Origin: Acidobacteriota bacterium
Lineage (GTDB): Bacteria > Acidobacteriota > UBA6911 > JACQSX01
DNA: 52,603 nt
Direction of reading: 5' to 3'
Assembly (NCBI GenBank): GCA_036507075.1
Contig: DASXQR010000208.1
Location: 1-52,603, forward strand
Below the pieces are notes generated by a model. It saw only the letters and a list, made by a program, of their open reading frames with translations, had not been told where the DNA came from and made no database searches. Shown here piece after piece: positions 19,701 through 52,603 of this stretch. The first letter of the stretch is position 1. The number at the start of each line of letters is the position of its first letter. The translations under genes were made by a program, and so were the position numbers.

Positions 19701-19869
19701 CCACGAAGGCACGAAGACACGAAGTTCTTAAACCCTCAACTAGAAGTAACGCTCTAGTAGAGCTAACACGCTGGCCGAGGTAACACTCCGGCAACAGCTA
19801 AAAGGAGCTTAATTAAGAAGTACCACTTTCAGTCTCAATCATGCCCTTCGTGTCTTAGTGCTTTCGTGG
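19701..19869. repeat. Inverted 8-mer-array (CACGAAGn) element with internal AGAAGT-like boxes
   Basis: Arms 19701-19724 and 19846-19869; degenerate boxes at 19742 and 19816. Confidence 0.85.
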
Positions 19870-19967
19870 GAAAGAGTTACAGGGTCGGACATCGATTCAC
19901 AAAGTTGATTTTTGCGGTACTGGAGCTAAAGTCAAATCGGGGGGTTTTTAGAATCGAGGTCGAATCT

Positions 19968-20621
19968 ATGCTGTTCAAGGATCGAACAGAAGCCGGACGA
20001 TTTTTGGCAGAGAAACTTCGGCGCTACCGATTTCAACCCGGCGTCATTGTCCTGGCCCTGCCCAGGGGCGGCGTGCCGGTAGCATTCGAAGTGGCGCGCG
20101 AGCTTGATGTGCCTCTGGACGTTTTTCTGGTGCGAAAACTGGGTGTACCCGGGCACGAAGAGCTGGCCATGGGCGCCATCGCATCAGGCGGCGTCCGTGT
20201 GGTGAACAACGACGTTGTTCAGTATCTCAGGATTCCCCCGGACGTCATCGACGCTGTTGCCGAGCGCGAACAGCAGGAGCTGCAACGTCGGGAACGCGCC
20301 TATCGCGGCAACAAGGCTCGCCTTTCCGTGGCGGGCAAGACCGTCATTCTGGTCGATGACGGCCTGGCAACCGGATCTACTATGCGCGCCGCGGCGCTCG
20401 CGTTGCGTCGCCAGAATCCCGCCCAACTGGTCGTCGCCGTTCCGGTCGCGTCGGCGTCGACTTGCCAGGAATTCAAGAGGGACGTCGATGAAATCATTTG
20501 CGCCCGCACGCCTGAACCGTTTGTGGCGGTCGGTTACTGGTACACGGATTTTTCACAAACTACCGACGAGCAGGTGCACGACTTGCTGGAAAAGGCCGAG
20601 CGGCAGCATGCGGAGCCGTGA
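19968..20621 (+). CDS. Phosphoribosyltransferase family protein
   Basis: [23 protein letters not shown] loop [20 protein letters not shown] before ATG 19968. Confidence 0.92.
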
Positions 20622-20632
20622 TCTCGTTTTTT

Positions 20633-20688
20633 TGCCACGAAGACACGAACACGCGAAGGGACAGGATTCAGCCAGAAGTGGCACTTCT
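20633..20688. repeat. Left arm of the 8-mer family plus perfect AGAAGTGGCACTTCT palindrome
   Basis: TGCCACGAAGACACGAACACGCGAAG, then the box at 20674-20688; no matching right arm found. Confidence 0.8.
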
Positions 20689-20826
20689 TAAGTAATTCCC
20701 TTGGCTGTTGCCAGAGCCAAGCCATGCGCGACTACCGCGCCGGAAAAACCAGGCGCAAGCCGTCACCCAGACGGTCGCGCGCCACATCTCGGGCACTAAA
20801 ACGCGAAGGACACAGCGCTGCCTCCC

Positions 20827-20841
20827 GCAAGGCACTTGCCA
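20827..20841 (-). promoter_or_regulatory. Possible sigma-54 -24/-12 promoter
   Basis: Minus strand reads TGGCAAGTGCCTTGC (GG-N10-GC); no obvious downstream gene. Confidence 0.35.
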
Positions 20842-20879
20842 GGCAGACCCGCTCGGTCGCCCGAAAACGGCCAAAATGA

Positions 20880-20907
20880 ACGTCTGATAAGTAATATTAT
20901 GTCAAGT
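20880..20907 (+). other. dif-like XerC/XerD recombination site
   Basis: ACGTCTGATAA-GTAATA-TTATGTCAAGT has the 11-6-11 layout; the right arm matches the E. coli XerD arm TTATGTTAAAT at 9/11. It lies in a ~600-bp gene-free, AT-richer gap. Confidence 0.75.
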
Positions 20908-21104
20908 TTTGCGATAATGCGGTTGTTTTCTGAAAAAATCTTTCGCTGCTGAGCTTGACGAAGAACTTGATCTTTTGTTAACTGAGATATCATCGTCAAC
21001 CCTCGTGGGTTCTGCGATACTCGCTTTGTTGCTCTTGCAGCAGCAATCCGATTTGGGGTGTGGGTTCAATTCTACGAACTTTGAGCCCACCCCCCACAAA
21101 TTGC

Positions 21105-21216
21105 CCACAAAGGCTTAGGGCGGCGAAGCCGCAACCAAAAGTCAAGGAGAGACGGCCTGAGGGTCGTCTCTCTGCGGTGTACTGGCTAGCTGAGACGACC
21201 CTCAGGCCGTCTCTCC
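21105..21216. repeat. CCACAAAG arm + GCGGCGAAGCCGCAACCAAA hairpin + 25-bp perfect inverted repeat
   Basis: 21146-21170 pairs exactly with 21192-21216. A further imperfect hairpin lies at about 21051-21101. Confidence 0.85.
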
Positions 21217-21232
21217 GCTCCCGAGGAATGGT

Positions 21233-21715
21233 TTACATCTTGTAGCCTAGATCCTCCGGATTGAGGTTCTCCAGCCACTTGCGAACATCCTCGGGATCGA
21301 GCTTTTCTTTGGTCAAGGCAAGGTTTTTCGAATTAGCGATCACAGTTTCCGAGACATAAATAGGAGAATCCGTGCGTAAGGCCAGGGCGATTGCGTCGCT
21401 GGGACGGGAATCGACCGTGACCGATTCCCCATTCAGACGCAAATGGATGAGGGCGTAAAAGGTGTTATCTTTCAGCTCGGTCACCACAATTTTCTCAACT
21501 TCCGCGTTGAGCTGCATCAGCACATTCTTGAGCAGATCATGGGTCATCGGCCTGGGCGTGTCCACCCGCTCAATCTGCAGCGCGATGGCGTTTGCTTCGA
21601 AGATTCCCACCCAGATGGGCAGCAGCGTCCCATTCTCCACGTTCTGAAGAATCACAATCGGAGAATTCGTAAGAGGATCCATCATTAAACCCTTGATCTT
21701 GAATTCCTTGTCCAT
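21233..21715 (-). CDS. Bifunctional nuclease (DUF151) family protein
   Basis: LPIWVG.FEA.AIA, PRPMTHDL, VDSRPSDAIALALR. Confidence 0.93.
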   Translation of the reverse strand: MDKEFKIKGLMMDPLTNSPIVILQNVENGTLLPIWVGIFEANAIALQIERVDTPRPMTHDLLKNVLMQLNAEVEKIVVTELKDNTFYALIHLRLNGESVTVDSRPSDAIALALRTDSPIYVSETVIANSKNLALTKEKLDPEDVRKWLENLNPEDLGYKM

Positions 21716-21723
21716 AAGACTCC

Positions 21724-23040
21724 TCAGATCGGCTGCCCCTGCAGGCTGTTTGCTCCGCAGCCGGTAATTCGCACCTTAATGAATTGGCCTGCGGATGCGG
21801 CCTCCGACTCAAAATTGACGATCTTGTTGGCTGTGGTGCGACCAAATCGCTTTCGTCCGTCGCGCGCTGTTCCCTCAACCAGGATTTCTTCCGCGGAACC
21901 CACCATATGACTGTGATGGTGCATCTGAATGCGTTGTTGCATCGACTGCAGTTTCGCCAGGCGGGATTCCTTTGCCGGTTCGGGCACTCCTTCACGAGCG
22001 TCCAGCTTCAGCGCAGGAGTGTTAGGTCTGGGCGAGTATTTGAAGGAAAAAATTGAGTCGTACTGAACACGATCCACAAGCTCCAGCGTTTCTTCAAAAT
22101 CCTGGTCGGTCTCACCCGGAAAACCCACGATGACGTCAGTGGAAAGCGCTATCTGCCTGGTTAAAGCTTTCAATGAATCGATTATCTTTAAGTATTTGTC
22201 AACATTATATAATCGCTTCATGCGCCGAAGCACCCGATCCGAGCCCGACTGCACGGGCAGGTGGATCCAGTTGCACAAAGTCGGGGTTTCTTCAAGCGCC
22301 GTCATGATGTCGGAACTAAAATCTGCGGGATGGTTCGTTGTAAAACGAACGCGCCGGATTCCGGGAACTTTCCCTACCGCCTTGAGCAGCTCGGCAAAGC
22401 TCCACTGCCGGGGTGACGGGTCTTTGTAACTGTTGACGTTCTGCCCGAGGAGAAGAACTTCCACAAAACCCGCATCAGCCAGCCGGTAGATTTCATCCAA
22501 AATGTTCTGGCTGGGCCGATAACGCTCAGGTCCTCGAGTGTAAGGCACCACACAGAAGGTGCAAAACTTGTTGCAGCCTTCCATAATTGTCACGTTCGCG
22601 CGGAAGCCGTTCTCCCTGAGAGCCGCGTCAATCTCGACCGGTTTGGGATCATCCATCGGCTCGGTGCGCACCACAGGCACGCGGTCCGAAATGATCTGTT
22701 CCAGGATGTGGGGAATCTCGTGGTAACGGTGCGTTCCCACCACCATGTCGACAAAAGGAGCCTTGCGGATAAAGTCGGTTCCCTCCTGTTGCGCAACGCA
22801 GCCCATCACACCGATCACAAATCCGGGTCGTTGCTGCTTGATAGGACGGAATTCTCCCAGCCGGCTGTAAACCTTCTGTTCCGCTTTGTCGCGGATGCTG
22901 CAGGTGTTGATTAAGAATACATCCGCCGATTCGGCAGATTCAGCTTTCCTGAGACCGCGGCTGGCCAGCAATCCGGCGACCTTCTCCGAGTCATGGACAT
23001 TCATCTGGCATCCGTGCGTCTCGATGTAGAAGGTCTTCAT
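21724..23040 (-). CDS. miaB: tRNA i6A37 methylthiotransferase
   Basis: GCQMNVHDSE, NTCSIR, EGCNKFCTFC, LLGQNVNSY, C-terminal TRAM domain. Confidence 0.95.
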   Translation of the reverse strand: MKTFYIETHGCQMNVHDSEKVAGLLASRGLRKAESAESADVFLINTCSIRDKAEQKVYSRLGEFRPIKQQRPGFVIGVMGCVAQQEGTDFIRKAPFVDMVVGTHRYHEIPHILEQIISDRVPVVRTEPMDDPKPVEIDAALRENGFRANVTIMEGCNKFCTFCVVPYTRGPERYRPSQNILDEIYRLADAGFVEVLLLGQNVNSYKDPSPRQWSFAELLKAVGKVPGIRRVRFTTNHPADFSSDIMTALEETPTLCNWIHLPVQSGSDRVLRRMKRLYNVDKYLKIIDSLKALTRQIALSTDVIVGFPGETDQDFEETLELVDRVQYDSIFSFKYSPRPNTPALKLDAREGVPEPAKESRLAKLQSMQQRIQMHHHSHMVGSAEEILVEGTARDGRKRFGRTTANKIVNFESEAASAGQFIKVRITGCGANSLQGQPI

Positions 23041-23081
23041 CTTTTCCCAAGTGTCGCGAAATCGCGAGCTCTAATTCAGGC

Positions 23082-23135
23082 GCAGAGACGCGGCATGCCG
23101 CGTCGAAGCTCTGACGCGACATGTCGCGTCTCTAC
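23082..23135. repeat. GTAG-type REP doublet
   Basis: GCAGAGACGCGGCATGCCGCGTC-n8-GACGCGACATGTCGCGTCTCTAC; second copy at 43041-43094. Confidence 0.85.
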
Positions 23136-23196
23136 ATGGCGCCGCGAAGCGGCGCTGGGGCTTTCAGCCCTGTCTGCATCTTACGCCAGCTAACGG

Positions 23197-24909
23197 TTAA
23201 TTCACAAGGCGGGGCGAGGAGCGTGAAATGAGACTGCGGGCGTGATCGAGGGCCGACTTCCCTACCTGGGAGCCCGCCAGCATGCGCGCCACTTCCTGAA
23301 GCTTTCCTTCGGCATTCAATCGCGTGGCGGTCACAACCGTTCGCCCCTTTACAACCTCCTTCTCAACACAGTAGTGCACATCACCGAATGCGGCGATCTG
23401 AGGCAGGTGCGTGATGCAGAAGACTTGATGCCGGGCCGCCAGCCTCTTCAGTTTTTCTCCCACGGTTTCGGCCACGCGGCCTCCGATTCCCGCATCTACT
23501 TCGTCGAAGACGAGCACCTCGGTGCCGGAACCATGCAGCAGGCTCTTCAGGCCCAGCATCAGCCTGGACAATTCCCCTCCCGATGCGATGCGTGCAAGCG
23601 GGCGGGGCTGCTCGCCGGTATTTGCGGAGATCAAGAATTCCACGCGGTCATACCCTTTTGAGGAAGCCTCTGCGCGCCGCAGATCGACTAGAAATCGAGC
23701 TCGCTCCATGGCCAGAGACTTTAAGTCATGTTCCAGTTCTTTCTGCAGCCTGGCGGCAGCTTTCTTGCGTTTCTGCGAGAGCTGCTCGGCCCGCCGCTCG
23801 AATTCGTTCTGCGCCCGGCCATGTTCGGCCTTCAATTTTTCCCGGCTCGCTTCCCAGTTCGCCAACTGGCCGGATTCGACGCGCGCGCCCGCCAGCAAAT
23901 CCAGGATCTCGGCTATTGAGTTCCCGTATTTTTTCTTCAAGCGATCGATCCTTTCCAGCCGCAATTCGATCTGCTGAAGACGGGAGGGATCAAAATCGAT
24001 GGCCTGGGAGTAATCGCGCATCTGATAGGCCAGATCCTCCAAAGAATAGCGGGCATTCCCGGCGGCAGATTCAAGAGGCGCCAGCTTCGGATCGATGGAA
24101 GCCAGTCGCTGCAGGTTCTTGATGGAGCGTGCCAGCAGCGAGAGCGCGCTGTCGTCGGTGTTGTACAACCACTCGAAAATCTCGCCGCTCAATCGCAGCA
24201 GCTCTTCGCCGTGCGTGAGCAGATTCTTCTCCCTCAAAAGCTGTTCTTCTTCACCCGGTTCGAGCCGCAGTTCTTCGATTTCCCTGATCTGGAACTGAAG
24301 GAAATCGAGCCGCTGCAGGCGTTCCGCTTCCGCAAGGGTGACCGAGCGTAGTTTTTCCTCCAGCTCCTTCATTCCGGCAAAGGCTGCTCTGACTTCTGCA
24401 CAATCCTTGCCGTGGCCGCCGAACTGGTCCAGCAGGTCGACATGCAGGCCCGTCATCTGCAGCAGTTGCTGATCCTGCTGTCCATGAATGTCGGCCAGCA
24501 ACGGCGCGAGTTCCTGCAGAAAGCCGATCGTCACGGGCGATTGGTTGATCCAGGCGCGGCTTTTGCCGCTGGTTGTGATTTCCCGCCGGAAGATCACCAG
24601 GGAGGATTCAACCGTCGCGGCGGATTTCGAATTCGATCCGATCTGCGCCGGCTCGACCTCGATCCCAGACTCTAGAAGTCGCCGGCAGAGGAGCGCGGGA
24701 GCGTCCATTTCAGCCTCGACACGGGCCGCTTCGGCCCCGGACCGGATGATTTCGGTGCTGCCGCGTCGGCCCAGGATAAAGCCGAGCGAATCCACGATGA
24801 TTGACTTGCCCGATCCGGTCTCTCCGGTTAAAAGATTTAAACCTTCGCCAAATTCCAGCGTTAAGTCATCTATTAGGGCAAGGTTTTGAATGCGAAGCGA
24901 TCTAAGCAT
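23197..24909 (-). CDS. recN: DNA repair protein RecN
   Basis: MLRSLRIQN.ALID, LTGETGSGKS, IHGQ, ASGGELSR, FDEVDAGIGG, ITHLPQIAA. The upstream extension in the ORF track is translated repeat. Confidence 0.96.
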   Translation of the reverse strand: MLRSLRIQNLALIDDLTLEFGEGLNLLTGETGSGKSIIVDSLGFILGRRGSTEIIRSGAEAARVEAEMDAPALLCRRLLESGIEVEPAQIGSNSKSAATVESSLVIFRREITTSGKSRAWINQSPVTIGFLQELAPLLADIHGQQDQQLLQMTGLHVDLLDQFGGHGKDCAEVRAAFAGMKELEEKLRSVTLAEAERLQRLDFLQFQIREIEELRLEPGEEEQLLREKNLLTHGEELLRLSGEIFEWLYNTDDSALSLLARSIKNLQRLASIDPKLAPLESAAGNARYSLEDLAYQMRDYSQAIDFDPSRLQQIELRLERIDRLKKKYGNSIAEILDLLAGARVESGQLANWEASREKLKAEHGRAQNEFERRAEQLSQKRKKAAARLQKELEHDLKSLAMERARFLVDLRRAEASSKGYDRVEFLISANTGEQPRPLARIASGGELSRLMLGLKSLLHGSGTEVLVFDEVDAGIGGRVAETVGEKLKRLAARHQVFCITHLPQIAAFGDVHYCVEKEVVKGRTVVTATRLNAEGKLQEVARMLAGSQVGKSALDHARSLISRSSPRLVN

Positions 24910-25036
24910 TTCAGGAAGTTTAACAATGTCATCGCTCTTGCGCCACGGTGAACGAACGTGCACAATCAGATTAGTGCAGAGCAGGCCGAGGCTTCGAAGT
25001 ATGGCGATGGGACAGACCATCGAGATTTCTCTCGCA

Positions 25037-25143
25037 GAATGCGGAATGGGGAATGCGGAATGCGGAATACAGAATGCAGCCACAAAACTGCTTGCCGACA
25101 GATCATTAATTCCGCATTCCGCATTCCCAAATCCGCATTTGAA
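25037..25143. repeat. Inverted (GAATGCG)n / (CGCATTC)n heptamer arrays in the recN-tolQ divergent region
   Basis: About 6 degenerate heptamers, a short spacer, then about 4 complementary heptamers. Confidence 0.9.
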
Positions 25144-25181
25144 TTCCCTATCTTTGTGACGAGCCACGACAAGGAGGCTTA

Positions 25182-25919
25182 TTGCCGATTTTTCTGAGCT
25201 TGCAGGCCGGCAGCGGGGGTCTGTGGTACCTGATGCTTCACTCCGGGATTATCGCCAAGATTGTTTTGCTCATCCTGCTCGGGTTTTCCATTCTGAGTTG
25301 GGGAATCATGCTGAACAAATGGCTCACCTTCAGGAAAGTGAGCCGGCAAAGCCAGAAGTTTTACACCTTCTTCAGAAAAAGCCAGCGCCTGGGCGATGTT
25401 TATAACTTCCTGGACCGCTATCCTTTTTCTCCGCTGGCTGGAGTTTTCCGCGGCGGCTATGAGGAGCTGCAGGCCCAGATTCGCGCCGCCCAGTCCATCG
25501 AACAGGCACCCACCCAGTCGATCGCGGGGCGGCCTCGCATCCGCAGCATTCTGTCCGTCCAGCGAGCGCTTCAAAAGTCGGCGGTGGCGGAAATGACCGC
25601 ACTGGAAAACTCTTTGAGCTGGCTGGCTACGACCGGCGCGGTCACTCCATTTATCGGACTTTTCGGAACGGTGGTGGGAATCATCGACGCGTTTGAGGGA
25701 CTGGGAAGCAGCACCAGTACGACCATACAGGCCGTTGCGCCCGGAATCAGTGAGGCGCTGATCACCACGGCCGCCGGGCTGTTTGCCGCCATCCCGGCCG
25801 TGATCGGTTATAACCAGTTGCTGCAGCGCCTGAAGGTATTCGCAGCCGAGCTGGATGATTTTGTGATGGAGGTTCTAAATCTGGTGGAGCGCACCTTTTC
25901 TGTAGGTCCTTCGGATTAA
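25182..25919 (+). CDS. tolQ: TolQ (MotA/TolQ/ExbB family)
   Basis: LATTG..TPFIGLFGTV.GI, VAPGISEAL.TTA.GL..AIPA; first gene of the tol-pal cluster; AAGGAGG before TTG. Confidence 0.92.
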   Translation: MPIFLSLQAGSGGLWYLMLHSGIIAKIVLLILLGFSILSWGIMLNKWLTFRKVSRQSQKFYTFFRKSQRLGDVYNFLDRYPFSPLAGVFRGGYEELQAQIRAAQSIEQAPTQSIAGRPRIRSILSVQRALQKSAVAEMTALENSLSWLATTGAVTPFIGLFGTVVGIIDAFEGLGSSTSTTIQAVAPGISEALITTAAGLFAAIPAVIGYNQLLQRLKVFAAELDDFVMEVLNLVERTFSVGPSD

Positions 25920-25920
25920 C

Positions 25921-26343
25921 ATGGCCCTTAAAACGTCGTCGGGCAGGGTCGCCACTTCCCTTTCGGAAATCAACGTAACACCGCTGGTCGATGTGGTGCT
26001 GGTGCTGCTGATTATCTTCATGGTCACCGCCCCCATTCTTCAGACAGGAATCGATGTCAATCTGCCCGAGACGCGGACGGTGGCCGAAGTCGATCCGTCC
26101 AGCCGCGCCGTGATTTCCATCAGCGCCGACGATCTGCTTTATTTCCGCTCCGATCCGGTGAATTACAATCAATTGCCCGGATTGCTCGCCCGGGAATTGC
26201 CCGACAAGTCAAAGTCGATCTACTTACGCGCCGACCGCAACGTGAAATGGAAAACCGTGGTCTCCGTTTTTGACCAGTTGCGCGTTTCCGGGTATCGAAA
26301 CATCCAGGTTGTGACCAAGGTCTGGAAATCACAGCAGCCATGA
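25921..26343 (+). CDS. tolR: TolR (ExbD/TolR family)
   Basis: SEINVTPLVDVVLVLLIIFMVTAP. Confidence 0.92.
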   Translation: MALKTSSGRVATSLSEINVTPLVDVVLVLLIIFMVTAPILQTGIDVNLPETRTVAEVDPSSRAVISISADDLLYFRSDPVNYNQLPGLLARELPDKSKSIYLRADRNVKWKTVVSVFDQLRVSGYRNIQVVTKVWKSQQP

Positions 26344-27212: not shown

Positions 27213-28577
27213 ATGAGACCGCTTCTTTTCCCGGCAGCCGCCCTGGCGCTGGCCCTTCTACCCCTGCTCGGGCGGAATGCGGCGCGGACCACTGAAATCG
27301 TCGTCGAGCCGATAGGATTTCAGGAACAGGGAATCAAAATCCGCCCCGTTCCGGAAGCAAGCACTTCGCTGGCCGTGGTCAAGTATTCGCCAAGAGCCGA
27401 GTCCGGTCCGGAGACCGGCACGGCGCTGCAAACTTTCAATGAGGTTCTGTGGGCCGATTTGAAATTTTCAGCCCTGTTCCAGCTTCCCAGTCCTGGGTTT
27501 TTCTCCCCAGAGGCGATTCGCCGGCCGGAGGACATCAAATTTGAAGACTTTTCAAAGCCGGAGGCGCAGGCGGAATTTGTCACCTTCGGCAATCTGCTGG
27601 CATCAGGAGATGAAATCGTCCTGGAGACTTATCTTTATGACGTGAAGACCAGACAGGAGATTTCCGCTCAGAGGTTCCGCCTGCGCTCGGCTCAGATCCG
27701 GGAGGCGGCGCACCGCGTGGCCGATGCCATCGCCGAAAAGCTTTCTGCAGGCCAAACGCGCGGCGTGGCTCGCACCAGAATCGCATTTGAAGTCCGGCGC
27801 GGCCGCGGCAAAGAGATTGCCGTAGCCGATTATGACGGCTACAACATGCAGTTGCTGACAATGAACGGGTCTGTCAATGTCAGTCCTTCATGGTCTCCGG
27901 ACGGTCGGCGCATCGTTTTTGCCTCGTTTGTGTCCGGTTTGCCCGCCATTTATGCACACGAAATCGCTTCCGGCGCGCGCGCCGTTGTTTCCGCTTCCGG
28001 CAGCTTCAATCACATGCCGGTGTTTTCGCCGGACGGGAGTCGCATCGCTTTTTCTTCGCGCAGCGATCGCGGAGACACGGATATCTTCGTTGCAGCCAGC
28101 GACGGAACCGGCAGGCGCAATCTCACGCACTCCCCCGGCGCGGACTTTTCTCCCACCTGGAGCCCGACCGGCCGTCAAATTGCCTTCGTGTCGGACCGTG
28201 CCGGAAATCCCCAGATTTATCTGATGGATGCCGATGGTTCCAATGTTCGCAGGGTGGTGAGCGAAGGTGGACACGCGGTGTCTCCGAACTGGTCTCCGGA
28301 TGGCCGCTTCATCGTATATGCGTGGCAACCCCCCAAGCGATTCAGCTACGATTTGTACCTGCTCAATGCGGCCAGCGGCCAAATCTTCCAGCTTACCTCG
28401 ACGGGGGCTTTCAATGAGAACCCGAGTTGGTCTCCCGACAGCAGGCACATCACATTTGAATCCTCGCGCTCCGGGGGAACGCAAGTGTTTATCATGAATG
28501 CGGATGGTCAAAATCTTCGCCAGATCACGCGCGAAGGAGTGAACGCCAACCCGGCATGGTCAGGTTATTTACAATGA
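27213..28577 (+). CDS. tolB: TolB beta-propeller protein
   Basis: TRIAF...DYDG and repeated PD40 motifs (PSWSPDG..I.F.S). Confidence 0.92.
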   Translation: MRPLLFPAAALALALLPLLGRNAARTTEIVVEPIGFQEQGIKIRPVPEASTSLAVVKYSPRAESGPETGTALQTFNEVLWADLKFSALFQLPSPGFFSPEAIRRPEDIKFEDFSKPEAQAEFVTFGNLLASGDEIVLETYLYDVKTRQEISAQRFRLRSAQIREAAHRVADAIAEKLSAGQTRGVARTRIAFEVRRGRGKEIAVADYDGYNMQLLTMNGSVNVSPSWSPDGRRIVFASFVSGLPAIYAHEIASGARAVVSASGSFNHMPVFSPDGSRIAFSSRSDRGDTDIFVAASDGTGRRNLTHSPGADFSPTWSPTGRQIAFVSDRAGNPQIYLMDADGSNVRRVVSEGGHAVSPNWSPDGRFIVYAWQPPKRFSYDLYLLNAASGQIFQLTSTGAFNENPSWSPDSRHITFESSRSGGTQVFIMNADGQNLRQITREGVNANPAWSGYLQ

Positions 28578-28617
28578 CGATATCAGTTCGTTAAGATGCC
28601 GGACGAAAATTGAATTT

Positions 28618-28687
28618 CTTTTGTGCCCTTTGTGTCTTTGTGGTGAAAAAATACGATCCACCACAAAGACACAAAGAACACGAAGGG
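28618..28687. repeat. Back-to-back 8/9-mer arms inside the tol-pal operon
   Basis: CTTTGTGTCTTTGTGGTG-n-CACCACAAAGACACAAAG. Confidence 0.85.
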
Positions 28688-28702
28688 ATTCGGAGGAGAC
28701 TA

Positions 28703-29497: not shown

Positions 29498-29501
29498 CAA
29501 G

Positions 29502-30347: not shown

Positions 30348-30400
30348 TTTCGCAGATTTCAAAACTGGCCAGTTATGTGTGTCAGGAGGAGGTTAAAAAT

Positions 30401-30866: not shown

Positions 30867-30990
30867 TTGCCACGAAGACACGAAGGGCTAACGGTCCTGT
30901 TTGACGCGACACTCTGCCCGACCCAGATCAGTGAGAAGTGTCCGTCTGGAGCTAAATCGAATTCTGCGGGCCTTCGTGGCTTCGTGGCAA
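30867..30990. repeat. Inverted 8-mer-array element
   Basis: TTGCCACGAAGACACGAAGG ... CCTTCGTGGCTTCGTGGCAA; the right arm overlaps the permease 3' end. Confidence 0.88.
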
Positions 30991-32301
30991 CTTTCCCGCG
31001 GATCGGCCGGCAAGGTACAGGACAACTCCCGCACCCGCCGCCGTTAATCCCAGAACAAGCTGCTGCTGTTGCATGCTGGCGATCAGCCAGATCGAGCAGG
31101 CGGTCGCCGCGATCGGCAGGACCCAACCGCCGGGAAGTTTCAGAGGCTCAATTCCGGACTCGGAAGGTCGCCGCCTCAGGAAGGGCAAAGCGGCGCACAC
31201 ACCCACATAGCTGACCAACCGCGCCACGGCGGCCAACCTTCCCATCTGGGCGAAATTCCCGGCGTAAGCAAAAGCCAGCGCACAAGCGGCGGTAAACAGA
31301 ATGGAAACATGAGGCGTGCGAAAATTGTGATGCACTTTACCGAAGACCTTCGGGATGTCTCCTTCTGCGGCGAACGCATACAGCATTCGCGGACCGGCCA
31401 GCATCAGACCACCGCACGTTCCGGTAATTGAGAGCAGCGCAGCCAGCGTAATGCCTCCTCCGCCTGCCCTCCCCAATAGCCTTTCGGCGGCCGAAGCAAT
31501 GGGAGTGCGGGAATTCTCGATCCCGGGAAAGATCCCGTAGGCAACAAGCTGGATCAACACATAAAAAACCGTAACAAAGCAGATGGTAAATAACAACGCT
31601 GCAGGCAGCGTGCGCTGCGGGTCTTTGATTTCTTCGGCCGGAATGGCCACGATTTCCCAGCCGGTCAAAGCAAAAACCAGCAGCAGCGTAGCTTCCCCCA
31701 GAGCGTCTCCGCTTCTCAGCGTGGTTCCCTGGTAACGCTGCCAATCGACAAAAAATAACCCGACAACTATGAAAAGCGACAGCGGCAGGATCTTTGAAAC
31801 AGTCAAGGCATTCACCACTGTTTTTCCATATCGCACACCCACAACATTCATCACCGTTACGAAGGCTATGAGAATCACAATGGCAATCATCTTTTGCGAC
31901 CCGCCCGCAGGGGGCCAGAAGTAGCCCAGATAAGTGGAAAACCCATTGCTGAGCGCTGCCAGTCCGGTGATGCGCGCCAGCCATGTCATCCATCCAACCT
32001 GAAACCCGACGAATCTGCCGAATACGGGGCGCGTATAAACATAAGGCCCGCCCGTTAGCTGGATCCTGCTGGCCGCTTCGGCAAAGCAAAGCACGATCAG
32101 AGCAATGGCCCCGCCGGCGATCAGATATGCCCAGATTCCAGCCGGGCCAAGCAGCCTTGATACGTCGGCGGGTATCAGGAAGATGCCGGCTCCCACTACT
32201 CCGTTGACTCCCGCCGCGGTCAGGTCCAGCGTCCCCATGGCACGAACGAGCTTTGGCCGAGCTTCAGTAATAGAAAACCCCCTGCTGCGAAGATTTGCCA
32301 C
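30952..32301 (-). CDS. APC-family amino acid permease
   Basis: G..VGAGIF..P, FAE......GG.YVY, GWE......EE..DP.R..P; about 12 TM. Start uncertain (GTG 32301 lies within a repeat arm). Confidence 0.92.
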   Translation of the reverse strand: MANLRSRGFSITEARPKLVRAMGTLDLTAAGVNGVVGAGIFLIPADVSRLLGPAGIWAYLIAGGAIALIVLCFAEAASRIQLTGGPYVYTRPVFGRFVGFQVGWMTWLARITGLAALSNGFSTYLGYFWPPAGGSQKMIAIVILIAFVTVMNVVGVRYGKTVVNALTVSKILPLSLFIVVGLFFVDWQRYQGTTLRSGDALGEATLLLVFALTGWEIVAIPAEEIKDPQRTLPAALLFTICFVTVFYVLIQLVAYGIFPGIENSRTPIASAAERLLGRAGGGGITLAALLSITGTCGGLMLAGPRMLYAFAAEGDIPKVFGKVHHNFRTPHVSILFTAACALAFAYAGNFAQMGRLAAVARLVSYVGVCAALPFLRRRPSESGIEPLKLPGGWVLPIAATACSIWLIASMQQQQLVLGLTAAGAGVVLYLAGRSAGKLPRSHEGPQNSI

Positions 32302-32420
32302 GAAGTCACGAAGAGCGCCAATTCACCTTCAGGCAAATCTTGTGCTCAGTCTCCGTAGGTTCCCATACTGCCACTTCTAAGGAAATCGCTAGACTTCGTA
32401 CCTTCGTGTCTTCGTGGCAA
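32295..32420. repeat. Inverted 8-mer-array element
   Basis: Arms 32295-32313 and 32394-32420; partial box TGCCACTTCT ending at 32378. Confidence 0.88.
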
Positions 32421-32456: not shown

Positions 32457-33194
32457 CTAGAACCGATAGCCGGCCTGGCGCACCGTCATCCGGAAATCTT
32501 CGCCTTCAAGTTTTATCACCTTGCACATTTCGTAAAGGCGGCTTCGCAGGCGCTGTCCTACGCGGTCGGTAAGCGTTTCTTCACGCCGCATTTGAGGATC
32601 TTCAGAACGGGTTTCTGGGGACCTATCCGGGAAATTGGAAGTGAAAATCGTAACACGTTTGTCGTTGTATCGGGAATTGATGATGTGGGTCATCGTGTCC
32701 TGCACCCACGCGGTGGGTTTGTTTGCGCCCAGCTCGTCCAGCACCAGTAATTCGGCTTCCAGCACGGGACGCAGGATCTCAAGCTCTGAGGCTTGTGAAA
32801 CGGGATCCCAGGAATGCTGAATGTCGCGCAGCAGATCGCGAAAGTCGTAAAAGAGTCCTTTCACTCCCTGTTCTATCAATTCCTTGAGCACTGCCACTGC
32901 CAGGTGGGTCTTCCCTACCCCGCAGGAGCCGATGAACAGAACTCCACCTTCGCGCTGGGGATGAAAGTCAGCGACGAATTTCTGGCAAATCAGTTTGGCG
33001 ACTTCCTGCGAAGGGTGCTTCGGATAATAATCCTCCAGCGTGCAATGCTCGTAGCGGGCGGGAATCCGGGCGGCCTTGACGCGGGCCAGTTTGCCCCTTT
33101 CAACAGCGCAGTCGCAGCGGCGCACAGAATTGCCGGATTCATCGAGCCGCCACCCGGTGTCGTTGCAGGCAGGACAACTGTCGAGTTCAGGCAT
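32457..33194 (-). CDS. DnaC/IstB-like AAA+ ATPase with N-terminal Cys cluster
   Basis: CPAC..TGW...RCDC, IPARY, Walker A GSCGVGKTHLA, Walker B LLVLDELG, SRLYEM. Confidence 0.88.
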   Translation of the reverse strand: MPELDSCPACNDTGWRLDESGNSVRRCDCAVERGKLARVKAARIPARYEHCTLEDYYPKHPSQEVAKLICQKFVADFHPQREGGVLFIGSCGVGKTHLAVAVLKELIEQGVKGLFYDFRDLLRDIQHSWDPVSQASELEILRPVLEAELLVLDELGANKPTAWVQDTMTHIINSRYNDKRVTIFTSNFPDRSPETRSEDPQMRREETLTDRVGQRLRSRLYEMCKVIKLEGEDFRMTVRQAGYRF

Positions 33195-33210: not shown

Positions 33211-33343
33211 TTGCCACGAAGCCACGAAGTCACGAAGGGAATGATTAAGCCCGAAGTGACACTTCTCATTCAATCTCTGTGCTCCTGCCAGAGTGTCACT
33301 TCTAATCGAATTGTCAAACTTCGTGCCTTCGTGGCTTCGTGGC
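33211..33343. repeat. Inverted 8-mer-array element with two internal palindromic boxes
   Basis: Three units per arm; boxes CGAAGTGACACTTCT (33252-33266) and CAGAGTGTCACTTCT (33289-33303). Confidence 0.9.
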
Positions 33344-41641: not shown

Positions 41642-41660
41642 AAAGCATTTCTCCAAAATA

Positions 41661-41764: not shown

Positions 41765-41792
41765 GCCAAACCTGCTGCTTAGAGGAGACAAA

Positions 41793-43007: not shown

Positions 43008-43040
43008 ATTCCCAACCTTTCCACCGCAATTTTTCCGCCC

Positions 43041-43094
43041 GTAGAGAGGCGGCATGCCGCGTCAGAGCTCAGACGCGACATGTCTCGTCTCTAC
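43041..43094. repeat. GTAG-type REP doublet overlapping the ATPase stop codon
   Basis: GTAGAGAGGCGGCATGCCGCGTC-n8-GACGCGACATGTCTCGTCTCTAC. Confidence 0.85.
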
Positions 43095-43823: not shown

Positions 43824-43899
43824 GGTTCGGCCTCCAGGTTCAAGGTACCGCCGACGAGGCAAAATCATGAGCGGATCCCGACCAGCGGCGTCAATAGGG

Positions 43900-43930
43900 G
43901 TTGAGCGGCCAGAATGTGGGAACGAGCGGC
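43900..43930 (-). promoter_or_regulatory. Candidate LytTR-regulator binding direct repeat
   Basis: Minus strand GCCGCTCGTT-n11-GCCGCTCAAC (21-bp period), with related CCGCT copies ending at 43888 and 43874, upstream of the operon that encodes the LytTR regulator. Confidence 0.55.
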
Positions 43931-43998
43931 AGGAGTAGAAATGTCGGAGCCAGGGCATGATGTCCAAAATCGGAATTGTCGGAGGCGGTCAAGGTGTG

Positions 43999-44102
43999 TT
44001 CACCGCAGAGCCGCAGAGAACGCCGAGTTTCCGCAGAGTTCCATTACAAACTCTGCGTTGAATTCGAAAACCCGAAACCCGCAACTCGAAAACCCGCAAC
44101 CC
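43999..44102. repeat. CACCGCAGAG 8/9-mer arm followed by an (AACCCGn) heptamer array
   Basis: TTCACCGCAGAGCCGCAGAGAACGCCGAG..., then aaaacccgaaacccgcaactcgaaaacccgcaacc. Confidence 0.8.
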
Positions 44103-44105
44103 TGC

Positions 44106-46616: not shown

Positions 46617-46633
46617 TCAGCAATCCGCATTCC
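46530..46633 (+). repeat. ~104-bp heptamer-armed element, copy 2
   Basis: Inverted homolog of 41661-41764; overlaps the PIG-L 5' end. Confidence 0.9.
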
Positions 46634-46657
46634 GAACTTAAGGTTATCTGAGAAAAA

Positions 46658-47185
46658 CTACAAATTCTCACCGTGCCGCATCATCACCAGGGCGTGTTCG
46701 GCCGGGTCCTTGTAATACCACTGGCGTCTTCCATGATTCACAAAGCCGTGCGAGTGATAAAAGTGAATCGCGCCGCTGTTGGACTCGCGTACTTCCAGGA
46801 AACATTTAAACGCGCCCCGCACCCCTGCCATTTCAAGAAATCGGTGCATCATGAGGCTGCCGATTCCCTGGCGCTGATGCCGCTGGTCTACGGCAAGCTT
46901 GTAGATTTCGACGTCGGGCGGAAAGATGCGCCCCGCGATAAATCCCACGATTTTTGGGCCACCGGCGGCGAAATCTCCTCTTCCATCCAGCCGGCCTTCC
47001 GCCAGGGCGATCAGTCCGTGGAAACCTGGATCCCCGATCAGCATGTTTACGTAGTCCTGGCTACGCCATACTTCCAGCCCGCAGTTCTGCTCGAGCGCCA
47101 TCACTTCGCTCACATGATGCGAAAGAAATGTCTCCAGACGAATTTCCGGATCCCGCGTCTGTTGTACCTCGCTTCGCATTCTCAT
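46658..47185 (-). CDS. rimI: RimI-like GNAT acetyltransferase
   Basis: LAVD...QRQGIG, FLEVRESN..AI.FY...GF...GRR..YY.DP.E.A..M; ATGA overlap with tsaB. Confidence 0.88.
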   Translation of the reverse strand: MRMRSEVQQTRDPEIRLETFLSHHVSEVMALEQNCGLEVWRSQDYVNMLIGDPGFHGLIALAEGRLDGRGDFAAGGPKIVGFIAGRIFPPDVEIYKLAVDQRHQRQGIGSLMMHRFLEMAGVRGAFKCFLEVRESNSGAIHFYHSHGFVNHGRRQWYYKDPAEHALVMMRHGENL

Positions 47186-47877
47186 CGTGTTTTTGCTTTG
47201 ACGGTCTGCCCTGCTCCTGTGTCGGCATCCGGAGGCCGGACATAGTACGCATCGATCAAGTCGGCCGCCGGCAAGTCGCCGCTCTTGAGTTTCCGGAGCG
47301 CGCTGCAAACAGCCGAGCGCGCGATAAAGCAATCCGACGGTATGACCCTGTGTCCTGCTTGTTCGATCAGGTCGCGATAAATCTGCGTTCCATCACCCAC
47401 GAACTTCACGTCTTCCCGTGACAGGGATGCAATCCATCTGCCCGGCGCTTCGACTTCAGCCTCACGAATCATAACAGGCGGAGCCAGCGCGGAGTCCCGC
47501 GTGTAAAGAGCTGCAAAGACCTGCCCGCGCCGCGCGTCCATGAATGCTGCGACAGTCCCGCGGGTGAGCGCGCTTTCAGCCAGAGCGTCCAGGCTGGTCA
47601 CTCCAACCAGGGGGCGTTGCAGTCTTAAGGCCAGGGCTTTCATGCTGGCAATGCCGACGCGAAGACCCGTGAAAGAACCAGGTCCGGTGACAACGACAAG
47701 AGCATCAAGCTGCTCCAGGTTAGTTTCGGCAAGTTGAAGCACCGTGTCTATCATCTCAAGCAATTTCTGTGAGAATGTCAAACCAAGGTTTACATTCAAC
47801 TCGCAGATGACCTGCTCTGCGCAGGCCAGGCAAACGCCTCCTCTGCGACTACTGGTATCTGCCGAAAGGATTTTCAT
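47182..47877 (-). CDS. tsaB: t6A biosynthesis protein TsaB
   Basis: IL.ADTS, GPGSFTGLRVG, DARRGQVF, Y.RP.DA. Confidence 0.95.
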   Translation of the reverse strand: MKILSADTSSRRGGVCLACAEQVICELNVNLGLTFSQKLLEMIDTVLQLAETNLEQLDALVVVTGPGSFTGLRVGIASMKALALRLQRPLVGVTSLDALAESALTRGTVAAFMDARRGQVFAALYTRDSALAPPVMIREAEVEAPGRWIASLSREDVKFVGDGTQIYRDLIEQAGHRVIPSDCFIARSAVCSALRKLKSGDLPAADLIDAYYVRPPDADTGAGQTVKAKTR

Positions 47878-47937
47878 TCAACAGCCCAAGGATACCAATA
47901 CACCTATGGCGTTTGGAAGACTGACAGTACCCATCGA

Positions 47938-48029
47938 AATGACAAACTGCTATTCTTGCGCTTATCTTCGTGGTCTTTGTGTCAATGACAAACTGCTATT
48001 CTTGCGCTTATCTTCGTGGTCTTTGTGTC
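47938..48029 (+). repeat. Perfect 46-bp tandem duplication
   Basis: AATGACAAACTGCTATTCTTGCGCTTATCTTCGTGGTCTTTGTGTC at 47938-47983 and 47984-48029. Confidence 0.95.
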
Positions 48030-48074
48030 TTTGTGGTTGATTTCTTTCACCACGAAGACACAAAGATCACAAAA
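48011..48074. repeat. Back-to-back 8/9-mer arms in the tsaB-mutS divergent region
   Basis: TCTTTGTGTCTTTGTGGT-n-CACCACGAAGACACAAAGA. Confidence 0.85.
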
Positions 48075-48112
48075 AGGGCATCAAGCAAATTCTTTCTACT
48101 CCGGTTTGCGAC

Positions 48113-50611
48113 ATGACAGACGATTCATTGACCCCGATGATGCGCCAGTACCGGCAGATCAAACAGGAACATCCGGATGCGCTGCTTTTCTTTCGGCTGG
48201 GCGATTTTTATGAAATGTTCTTCGAAGACGCTCTACTCGCCGCCCGCGAGCTGGAGATTACGCTCACTTCAAGGAATCGAGACAAGAACGGCATTCCGGT
48301 CCCCATGTGCGGCGTGCCCTACCATTCTGCCGCCGGCTACATTGTTCGCCTGATCCAAAACGGACACCGGGTCGCCATCTGCGAGCAGGTGGAGGACCCT
48401 CGCACCGCGGTGGGCATCGTCAAGCGCGAGGTGATCCGCGTGATCACTCCCGGCACGCTGCTCGATGACCTGGCGCTGGAACCCAAGAGCCACAATTACA
48501 TCGCATCGGTCCACCTGATGGAGGGTTCGGCGGGTGTCGCGCTGGCGGATCTCTCCACCGGTCACTTCGTGCTCAGCGACTTTGTGGGCGAACGCGCTCA
48601 GCAGGAACTGCTTTCGCTGATCTCTTCCTTTCAGCCTTCCGAAATTATCGTTCCCGAATCGCAGAAGCAGCGACTGCTGCAGAGTAAGCTGGTCGAATTG
48701 CCCTGCATCAGCGCCGCAGACGAGTGGACTTTCCACGCCGATCGGGCCCGTTCGGACCTGCAGGATCAATTTCACCTGGCAACGCTCGAAGGCCTGGGAA
48801 TTCCCTCAGGCAGCCTGGCAGTGCCGGCAGCGGGCGGGCTGCTTCAATACCTGAGAAAGACGCAGAAGTCGGCGTTGGAACACCTGCGCCTTCCCTCTTA
48901 TCTGCACAAGACGGATTTCCTCCGCATCGATTCCATCAGCGCAAGGAATCTGGAGTTGGTGCAATCTGTGGACGGCCTCCGAAAGTGGACCCTTTTTTCT
49001 GTCGTCGACTTCACCCAGACCGGCATGGGAGGGCGACTCTTGAAGGAATGGCTGCTCAGACCAAGCCTCAAACTGGACACGATCCAGCGACGCCAGGATG
49101 CTGTCGAGGAGCTCGCGGGCAACCTGATACTGCGGCGCGAGCTCTGCGATCAGCTTTCGGCAGTCCATGACCTGGAGCGGCTCCTGTCAAGAGTCGTGTT
49201 GGGTGTGAGCACTCCGCGCGAAATGGCAGGCCTGGGGATTTCGCTCAAGCAGCTCCCAAAAATCAAGGGCAGCCTCTCGCAGGCGCAGTCGCACCTGCTC
49301 GCTTCAATGGCGAGCCTGGATACGCTTGATGACACTTCCCAACTGCTGGAAAGAGCGCTGGCAGACGATCCCCCCCTTACCGTTCTGGACGGGGGCGTGA
49401 TTCGCGACGGTTATCATAATGAGCTTGACGGCCTTCGAAGCATTCGCCGCGACGGCAAGAGCTACATCGCATCAATAGAGAGCCGGGAACGCGCACGCAC
49501 CCGCATTTCTTCATTGAAAGTAAAGTACAACCGCGTCTTTGGATACTTCATTGAAGTGACGCGATCGCAACTGCACCTGGTGCCGGGCGATTTCATGCGC
49601 AAGCAGACTGTTGCCAACGCGGAGCGATTCATCACCGCCGAGTTGAAAGAGTACGAGGAAAAGGTGCTTACGGCAGAAGAGCGAATTCTCGACCTGGAGC
49701 GGGAGTTGTTTGCGGATTTGCGCGCGAAGGTGGCGGCGGCCCATGCGCGTATTCAGGCGAGCGCTTCGGCGGTGGCCGAGCTGGATGCCGCCGCCGCCCT
49801 GGCGGAGGCAGCGCACCGTTACCGGTATTGCAGGCCTGTGGTGGACGATTCCACGGTGATTGAAATCCGCAATGGGCGACATCCGGTGCTCGAGCAGCGC
49901 GATGATCAGCCGTTCACTCCTAATGATTTCTACGCCGACACGAAAACGCATCAGGTGCTGATCATTACCGGTCCGAATATGGGAGGAAAATCTACTTTCC
50001 TGCGTCAGAACGCGCTGATTGTGATCCTGGCCCAGATGGGTTCCTTTGTTCCCGCAGACTCCTGTCGTGTCGGATTGGTGGATCAGATTTTCACTCGCGT
50101 TGGCGCCTCAGACAATCTGGCGCGCGGCCGCTCCACCTTCATGGTGGAAATGATCGAGACGGCAAACATCCTGAACAATGCCACTACCCGAAGTCTGATC
50201 CTGCTCGATGAGGTGGGAAGAGGGACAGCGACCTTCGACGGGCTTTCCATCGCATGGTCGATCGCCGAATTCCTGCACAATGACCCGTTGCGCAAAGCCA
50301 AGACCATCTTTGCCACGCACTACCATGAGTTGACGAAACTGGAGCGTTTGTATGATGGCGTAAAGAACCTTTGTGTCACGGTCAATGAAGCCGGAGATGA
50401 CATCGTGTTTTTACACAAGGTGATGCCGGGAAACGCGGACAAGAGCTATGGCATTGAGGTGGCCCGTCTGGCGGGACTGCCGCAGCCGGTTTTGCGGCGC
50501 GCACGAGAGATTCTCAAGAAGCTGGAACGAAAAGAAATCGACCTTTCCGGTCAGTCGCGAAGCAGGACCACGGACGACGTGTTGACCGAAATCCAGAAGA
50601 ATCTCTTTTGA
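48113..50611 (+). CDS. mutS: DNA mismatch repair protein MutS
   Basis: TPMMRQY, FRLGDFYEMF.EDA, ITGPNMGGKST, STFMVEM, DEVGRGT, FATHYHEL. Confidence 0.98.
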   Translation: MTDDSLTPMMRQYRQIKQEHPDALLFFRLGDFYEMFFEDALLAARELEITLTSRNRDKNGIPVPMCGVPYHSAAGYIVRLIQNGHRVAICEQVEDPRTAVGIVKREVIRVITPGTLLDDLALEPKSHNYIASVHLMEGSAGVALADLSTGHFVLSDFVGERAQQELLSLISSFQPSEIIVPESQKQRLLQSKLVELPCISAADEWTFHADRARSDLQDQFHLATLEGLGIPSGSLAVPAAGGLLQYLRKTQKSALEHLRLPSYLHKTDFLRIDSISARNLELVQSVDGLRKWTLFSVVDFTQTGMGGRLLKEWLLRPSLKLDTIQRRQDAVEELAGNLILRRELCDQLSAVHDLERLLSRVVLGVSTPREMAGLGISLKQLPKIKGSLSQAQSHLLASMASLDTLDDTSQLLERALADDPPLTVLDGGVIRDGYHNELDGLRSIRRDGKSYIASIESRERARTRISSLKVKYNRVFGYFIEVTRSQLHLVPGDFMRKQTVANAERFITAELKEYEEKVLTAEERILDLERELFADLRAKVAAAHARIQASASAVAELDAAAALAEAAHRYRYCRPVVDDSTVIEIRNGRHPVLEQRDDQPFTPNDFYADTKTHQVLIITGPNMGGKSTFLRQNALIVILAQMGSFVPADSCRVGLVDQIFTRVGASDNLARGRSTFMVEMIETANILNNATTRSLILLDEVGRGTATFDGLSIAWSIAEFLHNDPLRKAKTIFATHYHELTKLERLYDGVKNLCVTVNEAGDDIVFLHKVMPGNADKSYGIEVARLAGLPQPVLRRAREILKKLERKEIDLSGQSRSRTTDDVLTEIQKNLF

Positions 50612-50621
50612 GAAAAAACAT

Positions 50622-50775
50622 TTCCACCACGGAGGCACAGCCCCAAATGCGGATTTTGGAATGCGGAATGCGGAATAGGGAGTGATTTGGGTTCGGCTTC
50701 GAAGATTTGAGTTGAAAATTATTCCGCATTCCGCATTCCGCATTCCGCATTTGGTACTCTGTCTCTGTGGTGAAA
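50622..50775. repeat. Heptamer-armed element (copy 3, 50643-50754) nested between CACCAC.GAG arms
   Basis: Outer arms 50622-50640 and 50757-50775; the inner spacer resembles that of 46530-46633. Confidence 0.88.
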
Positions 50776-50801
50776 GCGTTCTATCAGTATAGAGGCCCCT
50801 G

Positions 50802-52511
50802 TTGCCGCTGCGCTCTCGAACCTTAACCTTCCTTTTAATATGCTTCCCTTATTTTCTCAATCTCGGCGTCTCATCAATCTGGGACGCCAATGAAGCATTG
50901 TATGCGGAGACTTCCCGCGAAATGCTGGAAAGCGGCGATTTTCTGCACCCACAGTTCAATGGTCAGCCCAGAATTCAAAAGCCACCTTTGACTTACTGGG
51001 TCATTGCCGCAAGTTACGCCGCTTTGGGTGTAAGTGAGTTTTCGACCCGCTTTCCTTCCGCGCTGGCGGTGGCAGGTCTTTTCCTGTTTATCATCCTCGG
51101 CCTGGGTCGAATTTCGGCGGCTTGCCGCGCTGCGGCCGTGTACAAGGTTGATCCCGAGGCTGGACTTCCCGTCAACGGCGTAAACGGCTTCACAACAGAG
51201 ACGGCGCTGCTGGCGGCGGCGATACTCGCCACCGTACCCCGATTTTTTATCGTGGCGCGCCGGCTTCCCATTGATTGTCTCTTTACAGTGTTTTTGACCG
51301 TTTCCCTGCTGCTGGTGATGTGGGGCTCCTGCCGCCCGTGGATGCCAGGCCGCAGCGCAGTCAACATACGGATCTGGCTGGCGGCCGGTTTTTTGGCCGG
51401 CCTCGCCGTTCTGACCAAAGGCCCCGTTGCAATCGTGATCGAAGTATCGATTGCGGCGTTGTTTGCGCTTGCAGAGAAGAAATGGCCATGGAGGAACTAT
51501 CTTATCTGGGCTGGGGCGGTCGTGCTGGTAGTGTTTCCCTACTATGCAGTCCTGGCGGCGCGCGGAGAATCGGGCGCCATCTGGAGTTTTCTTTTCAAGG
51601 AAAACCTCGGCCGCTACACGACCCTGGTCTTTGGACCGTCCCGGAGCTCCTTCTATTACTTTCGTATCCTGTTCGCGGATGCCTTCCCCTGGAGCTGGTT
51701 CCTGCCCGCGGCTGTTTATTACTTCCACCAGGTTCGAAAAGCGCACGGCGGCCTGATTCCCGGCGGCCGGATGACGCGCTTTTGCGCCATCTGGTTTACG
51801 GTGATATTTGTGCTGTTCAGCATCTCGCGCAACAAGCAGGAGTACTACATTCTGCCCGCTTATCCGGCGATGGCGATTCTGCTTGCCTGGTATTTCCAAG
51901 GCGGCTCAGCACGCGCTCTGACCAGTTTAAAGATTACGGCGCGTATGCTGGCAACCATGTTCTTCTTGCTGGCGGGATCATTGTTGTGGCTTTCGGCAGT
52001 TTTTCACATCGGAGTGGCGGGCTGGGTGATACCTGCGCTGCTGCTAGCCGCCGCTTCGTTTCTCTGGTTTCGTCCGGAGCCTCCGGCGCTCGCGGCCGGA
52101 ACCCTTGCCTTGTTGCTGTTGCTGGCAATGGTAGATGTGTGTGTGACGTTTTTGCCGGCACTGGAATTCCTCCGACCGGCCAGGCAACTGGCACAACAGA
52201 TTTCAGGACGCCTTGGTCGCGGAGATCGCGCGGGCTATTTCCGATACACCAGCCCGAGCATGGCATTCTATTTGAGGCGTCCTATTCTGGAGTTGTATGA
52301 AAACGACGAGTTGCAGCAGGCGATGGCTGAGCCGGGTAGACTCTTTTTGCTGATGGAAGCGCAAACCTACGAGAACCTGCCTCAAAACTTGAAGTCGCAG
52401 CTTTCAATCATGAATACAGCGGTCCGGATTCCCACGCGAGCCGCAGATTTTTTCAATTTCACGCGATCGAGAGAGCTGCCCCGACTGCTGGTTGTGGCGA
52501 AAGAGGAGTGA
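50802..52511 (+). CDS. ArnT/PMT-like (GT-C) glycosyltransferase
   Basis: D.NE..YAE.SREM..SGD...P..NG.P...KPPL.YW, LTKGP, SRNK..YYILP.YP; many TM helices. Confidence 0.92.
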   Translation: MPLRSRTLTFLLICFPYFLNLGVSSIWDANEALYAETSREMLESGDFLHPQFNGQPRIQKPPLTYWVIAASYAALGVSEFSTRFPSALAVAGLFLFIILGLGRISAACRAAAVYKVDPEAGLPVNGVNGFTTETALLAAAILATVPRFFIVARRLPIDCLFTVFLTVSLLLVMWGSCRPWMPGRSAVNIRIWLAAGFLAGLAVLTKGPVAIVIEVSIAALFALAEKKWPWRNYLIWAGAVVLVVFPYYAVLAARGESGAIWSFLFKENLGRYTTLVFGPSRSSFYYFRILFADAFPWSWFLPAAVYYFHQVRKAHGGLIPGGRMTRFCAIWFTVIFVLFSISRNKQEYYILPAYPAMAILLAWYFQGGSARALTSLKITARMLATMFFLLAGSLLWLSAVFHIGVAGWVIPALLLAAASFLWFRPEPPALAAGTLALLLLLAMVDVCVTFLPALEFLRPARQLAQQISGRLGRGDRAGYFRYTSPSMAFYLRRPILELYENDELQQAMAEPGRLFLLMEAQTYENLPQNLKSQLSIMNTAVRIPTRAADFFNFTRSRELPRLLVVAKEE

Positions 52512-52546
52512 AGCACTCTTCAATACCAGCCGAGCCGCGCGCGGAT

Positions 52547-52603
52547 TTGCCACGAAGCCACGAAGACACGAAGGACAACGATTGAATTAGAAGTGCCACC
52601 TCT
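52547..52603. repeat. Left arm of the 8-mer family plus AGAAGTGCCACCTCT box (cut by the window end)
   Basis: Arm 52547-52573; box 52589-52603. Confidence 0.85.

Follow-up and report, generated by a model that had tools for sequence, protein, structure and literature searches.

The locus raises the question of what a short palindromic box is doing at a fixed distance inside tandem CACGAAG-type arms, and whether arm and box together form the end of a miniature element or a recombination site. The window, that is, the whole stretch of 52,603 nucleotides analysed, is contig C208 of the 6.1-Mb genome of an uncultured soil bacterium. Its canonical copy (33213-33343; like the other copies in the window, not assigned to a strand) runs from an arm (33213-33237) through a box (33252-33266), a 22-bp centre and a second box (33289-33303) to the facing arm (33319-33343), with arm distances of 14 bp for the first box and 15 bp for the second. 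The complete copy of 171 bp at 19700-19870 carries an internal duplication: between a left arm at about 19701-19724 and a degenerate right arm at 19846-19869 lie box-like units at 19742, 19776 and 19816-19830, the last at 15 bp from the right arm and that at 19742 at 17 bp. A truncated copy at 20634-20716, placed in the same subfamily by comparison by eye with cluster 6, has an arm (20634-20658), a perfect box at 15 bp from it (20674-20688) and a centre, and breaks off within the second box. Between ssb and an amino-acid transporter gene, a complete degenerate copy (30869-30988) has boxes at 30902-30916, 16 bp from the arm, and at 30934-30948. The complete copy at 32297-32418 retains a single recognisable box (32364-32378, 15 bp from the arm), the other having decayed. 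Finally, a copy of the largest subfamily (52549-52603) is cut by the contig end, leaving an arm (52549-52573) and a box at 15 bp (52589-52603); beside it, on the forward strand, lies a remnant of a RAYT-type REP hairpin (52530-52544, recognised by eye), a REP in which this subfamily is often nested. Every box reported in the initial annotation, clear or degenerate, is present where described, and the arm distances given there for the clear ones hold. The neighbouring genes are ordinary ones, such as miaB, recN, ssb, htrA and mutS. A lone gene for a DnaC/IstB-like AAA ATPase, with no transposase gene called adjacent, occupies 32457-33194 between two boxed copies, and further CACGAAG/CTTCGTG units without a box occur at 47966-48057 and 28184-28685, including an outward-facing set before mutS.

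The association of box and arm extends to the whole genome. Of 340 tandem CACGAA-type arms found genome-wide, 204 begin with GC and contain an exact CACGAAG. When up to four mismatches were allowed within 35 bp of an arm, a box was found near 143 of these 204, compared with 1.0% of 20,000 random windows, and near only 7 of the 136 other CACGAA-type arms. The genome-wide histogram of distances is sharply peaked, with 82 boxes at exactly 15 bp and 131 of the 143 at 14-16 bp, so that both the enrichment and the preferred position of a conserved palindrome about 15 bp inside the arms, proposed from a handful of copies, hold throughout the genome. None of the genome's 22 perfect boxes, and none of its 37 boxes with one mismatch, is farther than 120 bp from an arm. 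There are 54 occurrences of the exact core GAWGTGnCACWTC here; each of 40 relatives has 0-4, much as for a control.

The family comprises about a hundred small, gene-less intergenic repeats with mirror-image arms. The 204 arms resolve into 79 facing pairs and 46 singles; the inner length is 79-86 bp in 69 of the pairs, and three long pairs (202, 205 and 385 bp) contain, by inspection, other repeats and not genes. A full copy reads arm, 15 bp, box, 22-23 bp, box, 15 bp, arm, and thus has a box at either end. Of the 69 complete copies, 50 pass for both boxes and 67 for at least one, which corrects the earlier description of a single box per set of ends. The centre between the boxes is 22-23 bp in 43 of the 50 two-box copies; measured otherwise, the distance between box centres is 37-38 bp in 52 of 60 copies, and that from box centre to arm end is 22-24 bp at 112 of 120 ends. 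The typical complete copy is about 113-140 bp, shorter than the 125-170 bp first suggested; a 171-bp copy does exist at 19700, and it is the internally duplicated one. The end motif is also longer than first described, consisting of the arm, seven free bases, ATTnAnTTw and GAAGTGnCACTTCT. Nor are the spacers, whose median identity is 49%, entirely unrelated except for the box: this outer ATTnAnTT motif precedes it, and there are subfamilies (29 clusters, the largest with 23 members).

Conservation of the box lies in its letters and not in its ability to pair. Among 21 representatives less than 67% identical, the information content is about 0.6-1.8 bits in the columns of the box and about 0.1 in free columns. 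Of 270 deviations within boxes, a change in the same box compensates for 32 (26.8 in the null) and a change in the other box for 38 (34.4 in the null), so that neither form of compensation is indicated, and covariation at the RNA or single-strand level was accordingly rejected. Complementarity between the outer spacers is no higher than with shuffled partners, and that of the centre is below its null (0.27 versus 0.34). Since the letters and distances are kept without pairing, the pattern is that expected of a protein site, and the protein may be a dimer. In DNA folding predictions, box pairs with box in 40 of 60 copies and the arms form a strong stem, so the boxes may also have a role in single-stranded DNA. 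The proposal of a bipartite end, an arm plus a sequence-conserved palindrome at fixed spacing, on a miniature gene-less element is thus supported, both by the letter conservation in the 21 representatives and by a geometry that is maintained in a related species with a different arm unit.

The box is not confined to CACGAAG elements, a point missed in the initial annotation. Of 139 REP arms in this genome with no 8-mer element enclosed, 32 have a half-box at one and the same offset (0.84 in shuffled sequence), and this offset recurs in 11 of 79 arms from fetched loci of relatives in other genera. A second REP variant in genome G003, with a different 6-base linker, carries the box at the same offset: among 20 regions hand-picked from 48 one-mismatch matches there, 15 belong to this variant and the adjacent arm is intact in 13. 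These copies form one subfamily and so count as one event. A young family of 16 copies with 9-mer arms has a single box in mid-spacer, and 15 of 57 such spacers hold a box. Other arm families mostly lack it (1/33, 0/88, 0/20, 0/27 and 0/4), so the box is not a general need of such repeats. In other genera the GATGTGnCACTT box also adjoins 8- or 9-mer arms (L225 and L233 in G003, L208 in G005, L210 in G001), and at L082 (G041), in the upstream region of a GxxExxY gene, a box-like 15-mer of 11.2 bits is set a few bases in from a 9-mer arm; as one of 40 windows, it may be chance. Outside repeats there is no excess of boxes (47 versus 46 in the control), and all 112 matches of at least 20 bits are inside elements; an operator of a visible host regulon was rejected on this account. 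The sharing of one box at a fixed offset by unrelated repeat families makes it likely that it is a docking site for one shared protein, although the boxes in REP doublets could owe their likeness to common descent instead.

The boxed element is confined to one narrow lineage. The arm-plus-box pattern was absent from the 40 relatives searched, four of them of the same family, and viral contigs gave no matches. The single match in GTDB is one copy on a 6-kb contig of a Pyrinomonadaceae MAG, 89% like a subfamily here; as this contig shares other repeats with the present genome, mis-binning is more likely than transfer, and the copy is probably mis-binned. A metagenome scan gave 12 loci in one assembly, with genes mostly 72-83% identical to those of this genome and two 89-93% identical. 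In this related species CACAAAG or CACAGAG makes up 71 of 88 arm units, whereas this genome has 337 CACGAAG units. The box nevertheless lies at 14-16 bp for 22 of 29 arms; 13 of these follow from the search design, leaving 9 of the other 16. The arm unit has thus changed between the species, with boxes and geometry retained. Some copies there hold 3-8 boxes, at periods of 37-39 or 19-20 bp.

Comparison of the two species also indicates how individual gaps are filled. Nine gaps could be aligned in both: four have a boxed copy in both species and five have another hairpin family here. The shared boxed gaps are above chance (p about 3e-4, or 4e-3 with one shared locus counted once), yet identity between orthologous copies is only 38-52%; at C88:54854, the copy matches its paralogues at 94% and its counterpart in the orthologous gap at 40%. 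The simplest reading is that copies appear to be replaced in place, or inserted repeatedly at hairpin-bearing gaps.

An HMM found 85 near-full copies, every one outside the genes called by a home-made gene caller. Tandem, divergent and convergent gaps are occupied at roughly background rates (p 0.12). Gaps across the genome are saturated by other 7-, 8-, 9- and 10-mer arm families (GCGGAAT, CACAAAG, CACGAATTT, TCCCTC, GGGTT and others), several with a preferred spacer length of their own, such as 109-115 bp for CACAAAG arms. No target-site duplication was found, direct repeats of 2-9 bp being at chance level in 68 copies. Flanks are mutually complementary in 19 of 68 copies; 11 copies are centred in a REP doublet, another four adjoin that REP on a single side, and other palindromes host 7 of 53 REP-free copies (1.3% in the null). 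In 3 of 30 loci of relatives (one strong match and two weak), the REP that nests the element lies beside a Y1 transposase gene, and it is for this reason regarded as RAYT-type; the 8-mer element and the REP system nest in each other. No empty allele was seen in contigs of near-identical strains, and no junction with long sides across an element in sequencing-run data; one low-depth contig of a near-identical strain shows 8 gap letters across the arm at 32297, perhaps a single unit.

Candidates for a mobiliser come from the arms. This genome has six GxxExxY genes. One broken gene has a GC-CACGAAG-type arm lacking a box downstream of it, and in G365 an element with GCCACAGAG arms encloses what by eye resembles a GxxExxY N-terminal fragment. 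Arm plus box was found in none of 20 intact GxxExxY cassettes from five other genomes and in none of the six here; no intact cassette with GC-CACGAAG arms is among the 20, and these arms flank no RAYT/Y1 gene among 12 Y1 matches here (by eye) or 30 in relatives. The link to GxxExxY therefore comes from the type of arm. In this genome, a variant whose middle unit is CACGATG makes up pairs of arms that face outward and lack boxes (C40:12535-12602 and C194:4897-4956); it also adjoins the broken GxxExxY gene at C59. An upstream motif, TTCGCAGATTT-N8-10-CAGTTATG, is common to eight Y1/RAYT and three GxxExxY genes here (on C122, C85, C201, C107, C32, C223, C163, C167, C37, C83 and C152) and is absent from the boxed elements. 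A competence-type promoter of RAYT/GxxExxY cassettes was rejected, the best score in 69 spacers being 11.7, where the 11 training sites reach 24-37 and shuffled sequence at most 13.6. Another repeat, 140-250 bp long (C201:720-870, C107:3562-3813, C60:2065-2208 and C132:47998-48139), flanked by GTGAATTGAA- or GAGACTGA-type tandem repeats, has one copy directly downstream of a long (371-aa) Y1 gene. Box-like matches downstream of a long Y1 gene (C201:800, C132:48076) were set aside, as they belong to another repeat and score mainly from their flanks. The box resembles an E-V-P-L or E-V-H codon run in GxxExxY genes, but a coding remnant was rejected because the spacers vary in length by single bases (79-86 bp).

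On balance, and by no great distance, we lean towards a non-autonomous mobile element: a gene-less hairpin repeat whose arms would be read by a small cognate nuclease and whose two palindromic boxes would be sites for a dimeric protein that other repeat families would use as well. By analogy with IHF in BIME-1, a dimer on each box in double-stranded DNA could set the two arms in phase, and a small nuclease acting in trans would then cut the arms or resident hairpins. The nuclease is probably of GxxExxY type, or a RAYT for the REP-nested subfamily, and the element would probably spread by cutting at resident hairpins and being copied over them, leaving no target-site duplication. A broader proposal, which is possible but which we would sooner doubt than rely on, is that GAWGTGnCACWTY is a lineage-wide accessory operator recruited at fixed helical distances by unrelated hairpin parasites (the 8-mer GxxExxY-type arms, two RAYT-type REP variants and the 9-mer family), with one dimeric protein licensing spread by cutting and overwriting of resident hairpins. 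If true, this would be the first shared host factor for such systems since IHF in BIME-1, and would offer a handle on the movement of REP-like repeats.

The same nesting and signs of in-place overwriting could be explained without any protein if the box were the conserved inner part of an old REPIN end, captured by 8-mer arms and persisting by copying or gene conversion; the REP-linked box is indeed older and wider (two genera, two REP variants) than the boxed 8-mer element. We consider this unlikely, since copying should not keep the box columns whilst spacer columns are near random in 21 divergent lineages, and the 15/22/15 spacing is kept across species. The above-chance sharing of boxed gaps and the lack of presence/absence variants in the contigs of close strains are also what would be expected of a domesticated site, moving little and kept by the host as a platform for a nucleoid protein or, possibly, a Fur-like 7-1-7 dimer. 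This is improbable given the absence of the site from 40 relatives, four of the same family included, the other hairpin family here in five of nine orthologous gaps, the young near-identical subfamilies and the control-level count of boxes outside repeats.

A recombination site had been suggested at the outset. It could be a site-specific one, res-like or attC-like with the boxes as recombinase subsites, and the two dyads at fixed spacing, the asymmetric central bases (C and T in 26 of 50) and the rearrangement at boxes in a one-box copy of this genome (C39:6861) and in the 3-8-box copies all fit it. However, housekeeping genes and not cassettes lie at the flanks, there is no orientation bias (25:16, p 0.21), only 4 of 146 close pairs are discordant, so that mosaics are few, covariation is absent, and slippage between identical boxes would itself yield box duplications. 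Nor was cargo found between the ends: longer copies enclosing an ORF, whose existence the initial annotation had raised, did not appear in this genome, GTDB, the viral and metagenome scans or the 20 intact GxxExxY cassettes. The recombination reading is not supported, and we regard it as quite improbable. Least credible is an RNA-level element in untranslated regions, whether terminator, stabiliser or site for an RNA-binding protein: many copies begin 3-60 bp from a stop codon and the arm stem is strong, but 19 of 81 lie between divergent genes, which is the chance level, compensatory changes are lacking, the centre is less self-complementary than its null, and Rfam gives no match.

The boxed elements flank neither cassettes nor a recombinase gene in fixed orientation, as attC and res sites would. 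With MITEs such as Correia and ERIC, as characterised in the available part of PMC3184786, they share a length below 200 bp, long imperfect terminal inverted repeats, a gene-less core and an internal protein-site motif; the same text treats target-site duplication as a defining MITE feature, and here there is none, nor any insertion sequence with the same ends by exact patterns in this genome or in the GTDB, viral and metagenome scans. The GxxExxY tandem-arm cassettes (TIGR04256) have inverted 8-mer arms of the same sort next to GxxExxY genes, but none examined carries arm plus box, and arm families in other genomes have free spacers. A likely model for the arms, by analogy, is a small nuclease with cognate hairpin repeats, for which the Ssn nucleases (Ssn/SRM system; PMC11893778, in the portion available) are a precedent. 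How REP-like repeats and the widespread tandem-arm repeats (GxxExxY, four-helix-bundle) spread is unsettled, and the boxed family provides a clear-cut bait in its 15-bp dyad, found at 15/22/15 spacing in about 29 subfamilies and two species and shared with REP doublets. The signs of in-place overwriting likewise provide a testable model for the repeated filling of the same gaps by different hairpins.

The closest parallels are with REPINs and BIMEs. Like REPINs, so far as the accessible text of Bertels and Rainey (2011; PMC3116915) describes them, the boxed elements are gene-less inverted doublets of constrained spacer length, extragenic and with no target-site duplication seen; moreover, the largest subfamily is carried within a REP doublet, the REP in question lying beside Y1 genes in relatives, and the insertion of REP dimers within longer palindromes is on record in the part of PMC3733652 consulted. 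REPIN spacers are described in the same part of PMC3116915 as constrained for length and for hairpin pairing with compensatory changes, whereas here the letters of the boxes are kept with no compensation; nor are the arms REP hairpins, and they flank no RAYT gene. The BIME-1 or RIB of E. coli is depicted in the available sections of PMC2817692 as two inverted REPs with a spacer that binds IHF between them, and, on that account, it resembles the boxed element in its two inverted arms, its fixed-length spacer with a conserved internal site, its intergenic position and its high copy number. It differs, by the same sections, in that the arms here are tandem 8-mers and not self-palindromic REPs, and in that there are two dyad boxes and not one IHF site.

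An IHF site was itself rejected, the consensus being matched exactly in 0 of 69 spacers and with one mismatch in 3, against 5.7 in shuffled spacers. A literature search, mainly of the main text of open-access papers, gave no published account of the boxed element or of the box. What is new here is that RAYT-type REP doublets, both of this genome and of another genus, contain the same box at a single fixed offset. In our best reading, the family belongs with non-autonomous REPIN/BIME-like elements, equipped with arms of the GxxExxY-cassette type.
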